Below, in pieces: positions 22,702 through 64,000 of a stretch of 64,000 nt of DNA. The notes below the pieces were generated by a model that was not told the origin of the DNA, did no database searches, and saw only the letters and a list, made by a program, of their open reading frames with translations. The translations under genes and the position numbers were made by a program. The DNA is from a virus. Positions within the stretch are counted from its first letter, which is position 1; every line of letters starts with the position of its first letter. The stretch lies in IMG/VR virus record IMGVR_UViG_3300042896_000657, positions 1 to 64,000 of that record, one strand, 5' to 3'.

Positions 22702-22869
22702 ATGACTAAAAAAACGTTTGAAGAAGGAAAACACTACTATCTTGAAAAAGGGATGGTAGTGTTTACTGAGTTATGGCATCGTAACCGAGGTTATTGTTGT
22801 GGAAATAAATGTAGACATTGTGTTTTTGAACCAAAACATCAAAAAGACAATACTAGATTGTCAAAATAA
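22702..22869 (+). CDS. Small Cys-rich protein (DUF5522-like), not in ORF track
   Basis: MTKKTFEEGKHYYLEKGMVVFTELWHRNRGYCCGNKCRHCVFEP... Confidence 0.75.
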   Translation: MTKKTFEEGKHYYLEKGMVVFTELWHRNRGYCCGNKCRHCVFEPKHQKDNTRLSK

Positions 22870-22887
22870 AAATTGTATATTAAGGTT

Positions 22888-61071: not shown

Positions 61072-62325
61072 ATGAAAAAATGGATTGGGATATTATTAAT
61101 TATATTATCATATAGTTTAGACACTAAATCACAGGTATTAACACAAACATACTTAGATCCTTGTGATAGTAAAATGTATGTAGTATCATTTCCATTACCA
61201 ATATCTGTTATTACAGTTGCTATTAGAAATAAAGCAAAATCATTTACATACATAGATGCTCAAAATGGAACAATGTCTCAATGGATTGTTGGGATATTAT
61301 CAACTCCATGTCCTGTACCTGTAGCCGCAGTAGTAACACAAACACAAGTAGCTACTTCTGTAGCAAGATCAGCAGCAACTGTTGCTGCTACAGCAGCAGC
61401 AGCACCACCTCCTGTAGTAGTACCAACAGCAGCACCTGCTCCTGCAGCAGCACCTTCCTCAGCTCCTGCTGCTTCTTCATCAAGTACATCCTCATCATCT
61501 TCAAGTAGTAGCTCTGAATCATCTTCAAGTAGTAGTAGTTCGTCTGAATCAAAATCTGAATCAAGTAGTTCTGAGGAATCTAAAACTGAAGAATCGTCTT
61601 CCGAAGAATCATCTTCCGAAGAATCTAAATCTGAAGAAAAAGAAGAAGAAAAGAAAGAATCAAAAAACAAAGGTGCTAAACAACAAAAAATTAATCCATT
61701 ATTAATAGCATCAGATTTAACAACTGCTCAAAATCCAGACAATACATTCTCAGCAATAATGAATGTTGGGGTATCTAAAAATTCAATGGCTGGGGATGTA
61801 TCATATGGTGTAACTGGAATGGTATGGTCTAATCTAAATCAATTTGCTGTATCAAGTAGATATACTAAAATAACATTTAATGATGCCATGGCAACAACAG
61901 TAGCTAATACTAGTTTAACCACAGCATATGCAATGGGTAGCGTATTTGTATTTTTAGGGTATAGTGAAGTAATTAGTAAACCAAAACTTGGTGTTTTAGG
62001 ATATAATGTAAATTTAGGAGCAATGTTCTTAACGGGGGGTATTCAAAGTTACTTATCGTCATTAACAATGTTCTATATGAAACCCGTAGTATTAACTAAA
62101 AGAATAATTATTACACCTTCTATGTTTGCTAGCGGGACTCCTTTATTATATTCCCAAAGTCAAACATCAGTAGATACTAATTTAGCGTTAATGGCTGGTT
62201 CAACATTTGATTATGCTATTACTAAAAAATTTAAATTTGGTTTTGATTATAAAATTAGTTTTGGAACAGCACCTAATATTCCAATATTGAATATGGTTAT
62301 GGTTGGATCTAAAATTCAACTATAA
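61072..62325 (+). CDS. Exported protein: small N-terminal domain, Ala/Pro then Ser/Glu low-complexity linker, probable outer-membrane beta-barrel
   Basis: Signal peptide; AAAAPPP/SSSSSES/EEK tract; C-terminal amphipathic strands. Confidence 0.6.
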   Translation: MKKWIGILLIILSYSLDTKSQVLTQTYLDPCDSKMYVVSFPLPISVITVAIRNKAKSFTYIDAQNGTMSQWIVGILSTPCPVPVAAVVTQTQVATSVARSAATVAATAAAAPPPVVVPTAAPAPAAAPSSAPAASSSSTSSSSSSSSSESSSSSSSSSESKSESSSSEESKTEESSSEESSSEESKSEEKEEEKKESKNKGAKQQKINPLLIASDLTTAQNPDNTFSAIMNVGVSKNSMAGDVSYGVTGMVWSNLNQFAVSSRYTKITFNDAMATTVANTSLTTAYAMGSVFVFLGYSEVISKPKLGVLGYNVNLGAMFLTGGIQSYLSSLTMFYMKPVVLTKRIIITPSMFASGTPLLYSQSQTSVDTNLALMAGSTFDYAITKKFKFGFDYKISFGTAPNIPILNMVMVGSKIQL

Positions 62326-62326
62326 A

Positions 62327-62358
62327 TTTGGAGATGTCAGGGTAAGGCATTACATTGA
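62327..62358 (+). promoter_or_regulatory. sigmaA-type promoter (TTTG-N20-TACATTGA)
   Basis: Architecture match; TGTCA in spacer. Confidence 0.65.
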
Positions 62359-62382
62359 ATACATAAACATAAATAAATAAAA

Positions 62383-62664
62383 ATGAGTTACGATTTAGCA
62401 AACAAGTATGCGGAATTTGAAATTCCTAAAGAACTTAAACAAGTAGCACTCTCCAAACAATTATCATTAAGCGCTACTAAAATGGTATTATTTTCAGACC
62501 ATGTTCAATTAAGTAATGATGATGTAGATTACTACATGGCTTTAAAACCTGAAAGAATGGAGGATGAAAGTTTTGAAGATTACAAAAACAGACGTGTATT
62601 TACAAAACAATTATTTAAACATAGAACATTAATATTTGATTATTCAATTTACGAAACAATTTAA
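62383..62664 (+). CDS. Hypothetical protein
   Basis: PERMEDESFEDYK.RR motif. Confidence 0.6.
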   Translation: MSYDLANKYAEFEIPKELKQVALSKQLSLSATKMVLFSDHVQLSNDDVDYYMALKPERMEDESFEDYKNRRVFTKQLFKHRTLIFDYSIYETI

Positions 62665-62685
62665 AAACAATTTAAAAACAAAGTT

Positions 62686-62967
62686 ATGAGAAATTACGAC
62701 GATAATGAACCAGTACAAGAAATGAGCACACCATCCCAATTAACCAGAAATAGTGGAGAAAAAGAATTTATCCGTCCAAGAATAGATTATTTAAGAGATC
62801 ATGAAATAAGTATTAGATTTTTAAGTTTAGGATGTATAGTTAGAGTTGGATGTAAAGAAATAGCATTCACTTCAATTGACGAAGCAATGAAAGAAGTTAA
62901 TGCTTACGTTACTAATCCAGAAGCATCAACAGATAAATACAATAAATTATTTAACGAACAGAAATAA
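62686..62967 (+). CDS. Hypothetical protein
   Basis: I.FL..GC.V.VGCK.IAF motif. Confidence 0.6.
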   Translation: MRNYDDNEPVQEMSTPSQLTRNSGEKEFIRPRIDYLRDHEISIRFLSLGCIVRVGCKEIAFTSIDEAMKEVNAYVTNPEASTDKYNKLFNEQK

Positions 62968-62972
62968 AAATT

Positions 62973-63176
62973 ATGAGATATTATCAGGTAAAAGTTGAGT
63001 TTAAAACAGAAGACGATAAAGGTAAAATTAAACGCCAAAGTTATTTATATTTAGTAGATGCTCAATCAGTAACTGAGGCGGAAGCTAGAACAGTTAAATA
63101 TCTAAGAGAGCAATCAGAGGAAGATTTTGAAATTAAATCTGCAGGAGCTTCTAAAATTCTAGAAGTTTTACAATAA
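62973..63176 (+). CDS. DUF4494-like protein
   Basis: Y..KV......GK.K.....YLVDA.S.TEAEAR. Confidence 0.7.
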   Translation: MRYYQVKVEFKTEDDKGKIKRQSYLYLVDAQSVTEAEARTVKYLREQSEEDFEIKSAGASKILEVLQ

Positions 63177-63221
63177 TTTACATTTTTTAAAATTTACATA
63201 TATTTATATCAAATAATAATA

Positions 63222-63344
63222 ATGAAACGATTTAGCTTACATATTCAACTTTCGATACCCGCGATTAAAACGCAAGGGGAAGGCATGGTTTGTAATTGGG
63301 ATTATAATACCACAACAGGGTTAAAAGATACAGTATTGATATAA
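63222..63344 (+). CDS. Putative attenuator leader peptide (40 aa), not in ORF track
   Basis: MKRFSLHIQLSIPAIKTQGEGMVCNWDYNTTTGLKDTVLI*; preceded by ATATTTAT (63200), followed by a terminator. Confidence 0.7.
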   Translation: MKRFSLHIQLSIPAIKTQGEGMVCNWDYNTTTGLKDTVLI

Positions 63345-63368
63345 ATAAGTAACTAAAATACATAATCG

Positions 63369-63404
63369 AAAGCCCTGATCCAAAAAGTCAGGGCTTTTTG
63401 TTTT
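63369..63404 (+). terminator. Intrinsic terminator/attenuator upstream of tRNA array
   Basis: AAAGCCCTGA-TCCAAAAAG-TCAGGGCTTT-TTGTTTT. Confidence 0.88.
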
Positions 63405-63428
63405 GTCACAATAAAAATTGTACATTTA
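63397..63428 (+). promoter_or_regulatory. sigmaA-type promoter (TTTG-N20-TACATTTA) directly before tRNA-Cys
   Basis: Spacer TGTCACAATAAAAATT identical to that at 16131. Confidence 0.7.
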
Positions 63429-63436
63429 AATATAAT

Positions 63437-63507
63437 GGTTAGGTTGATCAAGGTGGTCGGTAAGTCTGCAAAACTTACTATAGTAGGTTCGATACCTATC
63501 CTAACCT
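63437..63507 (+). tRNA. tRNA-Cys(GCA)
   Basis: Acceptor GGTTAGG/CCTAACC, anticodon arm TAAGT-CTGCAAA-ACTTA, T-loop TTCGATA, U73; no encoded CCA. Confidence 0.9.
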
Positions 63508-63554
63508 CAGGTGGGTTTAATATTGTTCCCCGTGCGAAAAAAACAATATAAATT

Positions 63555-63627
63555 GGTACTTAAGCTAACTAGGTAGAAGCGATAGGTTGAAGACCTATAG
63601 GATAAGGTTCGATACCTTAAAGTACCA
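63555..63627 (+). tRNA. tRNA-Phe(GAA)
   Basis: Acceptor GGTACTT/AAGTACC, ATAGG-TTGAAGA-CCTAT, TAAGG-TTCGATA-CCTTA. Confidence 0.88.
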
Positions 63628-63674
63628 CATGAAAAAACAATTTGAGATGCTTTAGGTTAATTAACCTAATCATC

Positions 63675-63851
63675 ATGAAAAAGCTAAAAAGAGCAGAAAC
63701 AAACAAAGAATACAATCATGCATTAAAAAATTATAAATGTTATTGTATGATATGTAATAAAAGGGCAGGAATATATAATGCATATTGTGGTCCAAAGAGT
63801 GAAAAGAAAAATAAAAACTGGAAACAGTATAGAAAAACAAAATGGAAATGA
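63675..63851 (+). CDS. Small basic Cys-containing protein within tRNA array
   Basis: MKKLKRAETNKEY...CYCMIC...C...KNWKQYRKTKWK; ATG 63675 preferred over TTG 63642. Confidence 0.5.
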   Translation: MKKLKRAETNKEYNHALKNYKCYCMICNKRAGIYNAYCGPKSEKKNKNWKQYRKTKWK

Positions 63852-63898
63852 AAAAGTATAAACAGTAATACCCTCTAAGTAAACGAGGGAAATAAAAC

Positions 63899-63971
63899 GC
63901 CTTCGTAGCTTAATTGGTAGAGCAATATGCTTTTAACATATGTGGTGACAGTTCGATTCTGTCCGGGGGTA
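63899..63971 (+). tRNA. tRNA-Lys(TTT)
   Basis: Acceptor GCCTTCG/CGGGGGT, ATATG-CTTTTAA-CATAT, GACAG-TTCGATT-CTGTC. Confidence 0.9.
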
Positions 63972-63976
63972 CAAAA

Positions 63977-64000
63977 GTAAGTGTAGCACAATTGGTAGTG
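63977..64000 (+). tRNA. 5' part of a further tRNA, truncated by window edge
   Basis: GTAAGTG-TA-GCAC-AATTGGTA-GTG resembles acceptor strand plus D-arm. Confidence 0.7.

Follow-up and report, generated by a model that had tools for sequence, protein, structure and literature searches.

A rare-codon reading frame and an intrinsic terminator at the entrance to a phage tRNA array: a tentative case for ribosome-mediated attenuation

We analysed a 64,000-nt stretch of viral DNA (hereafter the window), which forms the first 64 kb of the 113,980-bp IMG/VR record IMGVR_UViG_3300042896_000657 (G000), with respect to a short open reading frame (ORF) that lies just ahead of a tRNA array. The genome has a G+C content of 28%, and the phage is of the Flavobacterium type with a host in the Bacteroidota. 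At the locus in question a promoter-like motif (P1) is followed by a 40-codon ORF, an intrinsic terminator, a second promoter-like motif (P2) and, starting at 63437, tRNA-Cys, with which a cluster of RNA genes begins. The features of this unit, all on the + strand, are:

63187-63208, +, promoter-like motif P1, with its core TATATTTATA at 63199-63208, 13 nt upstream of the ATG
63222-63344, +, candidate leader peptide ORF (P0006), 40 codons plus TAA
63228-63305, +, 26-codon stretch that contains all 20 amino acids and in which rare, G+C-rich codons are concentrated
63316-63322, +, CAGGGTT, candidate antiterminator strand (codons 32-34), whose partner in the minimum-energy fold of the nascent RNA is AGCCCTG at 63371-63377
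63327-63367, +, A+T-rich spacer with the stop codon and the weak inner helices GAT/ATC and GTATT/AATAC
63368-63404, +, intrinsic terminator, a 12-bp stem with a 7-nt loop (63368-63398) and then a U-tract, beginning 24 nt after the stop codon
63403-63430, +, promoter-like motif P2, 28 nt, ending 6 nt before tRNA-Cys
63437-63508, +, tRNA-Cys, first gene of the RNA cluster

An initial annotation of this DNA had described the ORF as the leader of an attenuator that gates the tRNA array. Its coordinates were correct throughout, including the count of 20 of 20 amino acids reached by codon 28 (63305) through 24 different codons, and CAGGGTT, AGCCCTG and both inner pairs lie where it had placed them.

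The ORF has a promoter-like motif and a strong terminator of its own. The genome contains nine copies of the 10-nt core of P1, and seven of them are on the + strand 15-90 nt upstream of ORF starts, those of large genes included, from which we infer that P1 has promoter activity. At the other end, the terminator is the sole strong one on the + strand within 62000-70000, and it stands between the ORF and the genes downstream.

Nineteen loci in viral contigs were found through the neighbouring gene, which encodes a 67-amino-acid (aa) DUF4494 protein, and the unit was compared at the DNA level in three sequences, namely the window, L004 and L012. The DNA of L004 is 96% identical to the window and retains the ORF with three residue changes. 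L012 is a more distant relative (its neighbouring protein is 57% identical), found through the neighbouring gene and independently of the ORF, and it has the promoter motif, a 40-codon ORF (P0019), the terminator and a tRNA in the same arrangement. Its P1 motif is identical at 22 of 22 positions and again lies directly upstream of the ORF, which begins 13 nt after it in both genomes and would thus stand close to the transcription start. The terminator stem is conserved in L004 and L012, and the distance from stop codon to stem is 24 nt in L012 as in the window. The counterpart of CAGGGTT in L012, CAGGGCT, has the same spacing from the ATG (94 nt), and the rare GGG codon within CAGGGYT is kept in both. 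L012 has neither P2 nor tRNA-Cys; its first tRNA (42 bits with Rfam) begins 3 nt past the U-tract of the terminator, which leaves no room there for a P2-type promoter, and this tRNA needs read-through.

How the ORF itself has changed between the window and L012 differs greatly along its length. Codons 3-21 are 29-33% identical, which is the random level for this composition, whereas in codons 31-40 each of the three codon positions shows 70-80% identity, and identity is 78% over the stretch that extends from codon 31 to where the terminator ends. The neighbouring gene, in contrast, has the usual coding pattern, with identities of 0.68, 0.81 and 0.59 at codon positions 1, 2 and 3. Because of this pattern we consider that the promoter motif and a 3′ regulatory block are kept at the nucleotide level, while the body of the ORF is free to change but stays open; at this composition the probability of a 40-codon frame being open by chance is about 0.02-0.03.

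The codons of the ORF are also unusual for this phage. As the initial annotation had noticed, many are rare: 12 of the 40 have a relative adaptiveness of 0.13 or less. The codon adaptation index is 0.43 for the ORF of the window and 0.45 for that of L012, as against 0.74 ± 0.06 for the genes, whose minimum is 0.58, and the G+C content at third codon positions is 0.33 as against 0.13. Among 94 small ORFs, codon usage places this one with frames that overlap RNA genes or run off-frame in real genes.

Folding of the RNA up to the terminator loop gave the CAGGGYU:AGCCCUG hairpin at minimum energy in both the window and L012 (-13 to -15 kcal/mol). In full-length folds, which include the 3′ arm, the equilibrium structure is always the terminator; as with known attenuators, folding at equilibrium is thus unable to show whether the RNA switches. 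When 62000-64000 was scanned with Rfam (E up to 10), no T-box match appeared, and at the unit no family came up to its threshold. The best match there was Thr_leader (RF00506), which with 27.7 bits in the window and 23.6 bits in L012 stays below its gathering threshold of 55 and covers the terminator region only.

What might such a unit do? We tentatively favour the reading that a ribosome-mediated attenuator of transcription, made up of P1, the 40-codon ORF and the terminator, stands at the 5′ edge of the RNA cluster with its tRNAs, transfer-messenger RNA (tmRNA) and GOLLD RNA and would gauge decoding in general, and we hold this to be possible at somewhat less than an even chance. We favour it because the layout recurs in L012, which was found independently of the ORF, and because in both genomes the ORF is rich in rare codons and its body open though unalignable. 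Starting from the observed anatomy, conservation, codon bias and possible pairing, we infer that P1 is used as a promoter, that the leader is translated and that stalling affects read-through. Transcripts from P1 would be translated at once, from a start preceded by a short, A-rich leader that has no Shine-Dalgarno sequence; its absence is usual in Bacteroidota. A ribosome that keeps pace with the polymerase would reach codons 30-41 and occupy or split the CAGGGUU...AGCCCUG hairpin, and with the hairpin blocked the terminator would form and the transcript end at about 63400. A ribosome lagging on the rare and diverse codons of the first 30, if held before about codon 27, would leave the hairpin free; the hairpin would then form first and sequester the 5′ arm of the terminator, so that the polymerase could continue into the tRNA genes. 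On this mechanism the ORF would report general decoding capacity rather than the state of each of 20 tRNAs, and the all-20 content seen in the lineage of the window would be the extreme of a compositionally diverse, rare-codon leader.

The all-20 content of the ORF is striking. At the amino-acid frequencies of the phage, a run of 28 codons that begins at a given start covers all 20 residues with a probability of 1.4e-5; the value is 6e-6 with the base composition of the ORF itself and 4e-4 with equal frequencies. When all 228,000 positions in the six frames of the 114-kb genome are compared, the 26-codon stretch is the shortest to be complete; the next-shortest measure 30, 32, 33 and 35 codons, and the rest of the tail matches the null model. 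For the 439 ATG-initiated ORFs of at least 28 codons in the genome, about 0.006 ORFs this complete would be expected by chance, and without an anchor at a start codon the chance of a complete 26-codon stretch somewhere in the genome is about 0.1-0.2. The property is thus rare, yet it was chosen post hoc in a very large scan, and therefore only independent evidence can give it meaning.

Such evidence was sought among relatives of the peptide. Protein searches yielded 29 distinct variants of 40-43 aa in six lineages, with in-frame insertions and deletions (indels); none of the variants is named or has a Pfam family. The initial annotation had predicted that completeness would be conserved in relatives, and this did not hold. 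All 20 residue types are present in 16 variants, 19 in nine (Glu, Cys or Arg missing), 18 in three (Glu and Tyr, or Ala and Cys, missing) and 17 in one (Ala, Cys and Gly missing), so that 13 of the 29 are incomplete, by one to three amino acids. The lineages of P0021, P0023 and P0019 have no complete member: P0021, P0027 and P0028 are without Arg, P0023 and P0029 are without Ala and Cys, with or without the further loss of Gly, and the L012 clade is without Glu or without Glu and Tyr, the latter being the case for its commonest variant (21 contigs). In P0023 and P0029 a Thr-Gly-Leu is replaced. In the P0020/P0026 lineage, on the other hand, Glu20 is lost but position 9 holds a Glu, and P0022, at about 35% divergence, is complete. 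Within the close clade (the main clade plus its nearest lineage, P0020/P0026), nine distinct substitutions fall in the first 28 codons, and three of them abolish a residue that is present in one copy, where 4.3 would be expected under neutrality. The family as a whole holds 17-20 residue types per 40 residues, whereas 40-residue windows of the proteome average 15.3 and only 2.4% of them reach 19. In diverged lineages the number of residue types is slightly above the prediction from neutral resampling (P 0.07-0.64 per lineage), and the Fisher combination of these values is about 0.04-0.06 for lineages that are not independent of each other. High residue diversity may thus be favoured, but strict all-20 completeness is neither favoured nor a conserved requirement. 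Weak profile matches of the family to two large repeat proteins were set aside: in P0024 the matches fall on GxG..W(D/N)(Y/F)-type repeats and were judged fortuitous, and P0025 has no such motif.

A number of observations weigh against attenuation. Classical attenuators have runs of regulatory codons, and the ORF of the window has none; codons for a sensed amino acid are not over-represented in it, and with rare codons in their place it stands nearer to the bmrB type of leader than to trpL or hisL. The initial annotation had also expected covarying antiterminator and terminator arms in relatives, and its attenuator retains in L012 the layout (P1, an open ORF, the terminator and a partner strand within the ORF) without this covariation: among the window, L004 and L012 no two-sided change was found in the candidate antiterminator, the sole change being one-sided, from U.G to C-G, and in L012 part of the inner helices is disrupted. 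The pairing it had proposed appears in the computed fold of the nascent RNA and gives way there to the terminator, as described above, but its energy in the window is unexceptional. Compared with dinucleotide shuffles the pairing duplex has P = 0.14 in the window and 0.015 in L012, and compared with shuffled interiors the whole hairpin has P = 0.055 and 0.29, respectively. The peptides of five lineages share 11 invariant residues (M1, F4, H7, L10, P13, T17, Q18, N25, W26, D27 and Y28), and these, the NWDY among them, could mean that the peptide acts in trans. P2, of which near-identical + strand copies are found at 22858-22885 of the window and 74609-74636 of G000 (three copies in total), could drive the array without read-through; if it is active in this genome, the array is independent of read-through. 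L005-L011, which are nearer relatives by the neighbouring gene, have other genes at the locus and lack the unit. Finally, in the unrelated 134-kb viral contig L138 (5182-5250, minus strand) CAGGGTTAAA is found among the final codons of a long gene, with a terminator of the same stem sequence 40 nt after it, a caution that such pairing can arise without attenuation.

L138 was the one addition made by a scan with a composite pattern, and it is the end of an ordinary gene. A scan with a 16-nt pattern was unspecific, with 101 matches of which only those at the two known loci have the terminator; scans of viral contigs for the unit gave only the contigs of L004 and L012, and two metagenome scans gave no match. 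Judged by the DUF4494 gene, Flavobacterium phage immuto is the closest relative in culture, and the corresponding position of its genome carries no tRNA array. We also considered the exchange of Glu20Gln and Gln9Glu as a case of base-pair covariation and rejected it, as the two bases would close merely a 3-bp helix. The copy of P2 at 74609-74636 falls inside an 84-codon ORF (74490-74741).

Could the ORF instead be a free-standing small gene, whose 40-aa peptide acts in trans while the terminator ends a late-type unit and insulates an RNA cluster transcribed from P2 or by leaky read-through? The spacing from P1 to the ATG equals that of bona fide genes, the terminator is strong and P2 stands before tRNA-Cys, all of which would suit such a gene, as would a family of 29 variants with in-frame indels and 11 residues invariant in five lineages. 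The indels, however, carry an ascertainment bias, since the variants were drawn from protein databases, and the codon usage is unlike that of every credible small gene of the phage. The comparison with L012, in which the body of the ORF is unalignable and its 3′ end kept at all codon positions, points to constraint on nucleotides rather than on protein, and relative to L004 the ORF has one synonymous and three non-synonymous changed codons, as against eight and three in the neighbouring gene. AlphaFold2 (22 sequences) gave the peptide a predicted local distance difference test score of 49 and no secondary structure, no Pfam or PHROG profile matched it at E up to 0.1, and a collection of cultured phages held no significant match (E 0.3 or worse). 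With the lack of a P2-type motif in the 3 nt between terminator and first tRNA of L012, these results lead us to regard a small gene as unlikely, if still to be taken seriously. Far more doubtful is a strict pan-tRNA sensor, in which the completeness itself would be selected and a stall at any once-used rare codon, for instance after attack by an anticodon nuclease, would induce the tRNA array and the tmRNA. It would account for 20 residues in 26-28 codons (about 1e-5 per start), for the 16 complete variants, among them P0022, for the Glu at position 9 in P0020/P0026 and for the slight excess of residue types over neutral resampling, and the array has tRNAs for at least 18 amino acids (ARAGORN). 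For an array of such breadth, a leader built as its mirror would be expected to contain nearly every amino acid too; this case agrees with that, but the agreement has no power as a test. That phage tRNAs counter anticodon nucleases is, moreover, a published idea (PMC10264068), although its link to this leader, also drawn in the initial annotation, is pure conjecture. Whole lineages nevertheless do without Arg, without Glu or Glu and Tyr, or without Ala and Cys (and Gly); the number of single-copy residues removed is close to the neutral expectation; P2 may bypass the gate; and with one codon per amino acid (13 residue types have a single codon among the first 28) the leader would be a weaker sensor than known attenuators with their runs of codons.

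Two further explanations give the ORF a lesser part or none. One is that the unit yields a small RNA of about 190 nt, either non-coding or with a dual function, which extends from P1 to the terminator and to which the ORF is secondary. A short promoter-to-terminator unit beside tRNAs, a tmRNA and a GOLLD RNA, a patch of 45% G+C within a genome of 28% G+C, codon usage like that of ORFs overlapping RNA genes and a 3′ part conserved at the nucleotide level are what one would expect of such an RNA. Yet the 40-codon frame is open in L012 despite the unalignable body, the scan with Rfam found no family at threshold, and a stable structured RNA in the body of the ORF was considered and rejected because the folding z-scores of the 5′ part (-0.4 to -0.9) are not significant; we judge this explanation improbable. 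Were either a trans-acting RNA or a trans-acting peptide the answer, the unit would still be a conserved unknown at a conserved position of the genome. The other explanation is that there is no dedicated function, the terminator ending an upstream late operon and the ORF being a chance open frame in the spacer. A feature picked post hoc makes this worth stating, as very many ORFs were scanned and rarity of this order is to be expected somewhere, but the conservation of the ORF in L012, found independently of it, the six lineages of the peptide and a P1 conserved at every position directly upstream make it very improbable.

The body of the ORF holds one further peculiarity. The 9-mer TTCGATACC at 63251-63259 occurs elsewhere in the genome only in the T-loops of three tRNAs (63488, 63608 and 64695), and a 120-nt stretch would contain it by chance with a probability of about 2e-4. 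The idea that the ORF harbours the remains of a tRNA was considered and rejected, as the flanks form no T-stem and Rfam shows no tRNA there.

An attenuator at this place would have well-known counterparts. In the trpL, hisL, thrL and ilv leaders of enterobacteria a short ORF precedes a terminator, and fast translation leads to termination and a lagging ribosome to read-through. The phage unit shares with them a short ORF in a putative leader, the terminator and a candidate alternative partner of its 5′ arm in the 3′ part of the ORF. It differs in that the leader would be a diverse rare-codon frame and not a series of codons that specify a single amino acid or a small number of them, that phage tRNAs, a tmRNA and a GOLLD RNA in a Bacteroidota host, and not biosynthetic enzymes, lie downstream, and that the phage genome may have a promoter after the terminator. 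Among known transcription attenuators, it is the T-box riboswitches that sense tRNA; they too choose between terminator and antiterminator, but they have a conserved structure, bind uncharged tRNA directly and do without translation. The leaders of ABC-F resistance genes are attenuators that sense a general impairment of translation. Phage tRNA arrays, for their part, are usually seen as constitutive helpers in codon usage or as decoys against tRNA-cutting defences.

Closer in kind is the bmrB leader of Bacillus subtilis, in which rare codons set the basal read-through (PMC4191407). As in bmrB-bmrCD, a leader ORF, here a putative one, would overlap alternative stem-loops and a terminator and respond to slowed ribosomes generally; the bmrB and ABC-F leaders, unlike it, sense antibiotics and control resistance proteins, whereas the targets of the phage unit would be RNA genes. 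For inducible tRNA arrays the closest case in print is the trn operon of Anabaena sp. PCC 7120, an array of supernumerary tRNAs, silent by default, which, according to its abstract, is induced when translation is impaired (PMC8421152) and whose control is reported, again in an abstract, to act through the transcriptional repressor TrcR (PMC10272220). That operon belongs to a bacterial megaplasmid and not to a phage, and the two abstracts mention neither a leader ORF nor a terminator. If the phage unit is an attenuator, then the phage would measure decoding capacity and top it up on demand, with a compact sensor of about 190 nt, and attenuation of the trp type would extend to RNA genes, to phages and to the Bacteroidota. 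If it were a pan-tRNA sensor, it would amount to an inducible counter-defence through translation-coupled attenuation.

The RNA cluster behind the terminator extends to 68728 in the full record and comprises 20 tRNAs at the default settings of ARAGORN and 22 at a lower threshold. Besides tRNA-Cys, its features include:

63555-63628, +, tRNA-Phe, within the window
63899-63972, +, tRNA-Lys, within the window
G000 64074-64565 (L139 2075-2566), just past the end of the window, tmRNA of about 490 nt (Rfam, 64.5 bits), between tRNA-Trp and tRNA-Arg
G000 67865-68282 (L139 5866-6283), past the end of the window, full-length GOLLD RNA (Rfam RF02032, 262 bits), between tRNA-Thr and tRNA-Leu

Because the tmRNA sits within the cluster, a ribosome-rescue RNA also lies behind the terminator. 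An extra tRNA with the anticodon CAT (G000 64645-64715), detected by ARAGORN at the lower threshold only, could serve as the initiator tRNA or as one of the Ile type (lysidine). Three tRNA-like genes (G000 66148-66282, about 66540-66658 and 68530-68633) have acceptor and T-arm sequences in common, and behind the anticodon region they carry long insertions, between 11 and about 60 nt in size; they are recognised by ARAGORN with intron settings only, and Rfam gives one of them 49 bits over 103 nt. Long tRNA-like RNAs that resemble these three are also present in L005, L010 and L011. Between the window and L004 the region is a mosaic: the small ORFs at 62686-62967 and 63675-63851 have no counterpart in L004 and the remainder is 94-100% identical, with tRNA-Cys at 100% and tRNA-Phe at just 74%.

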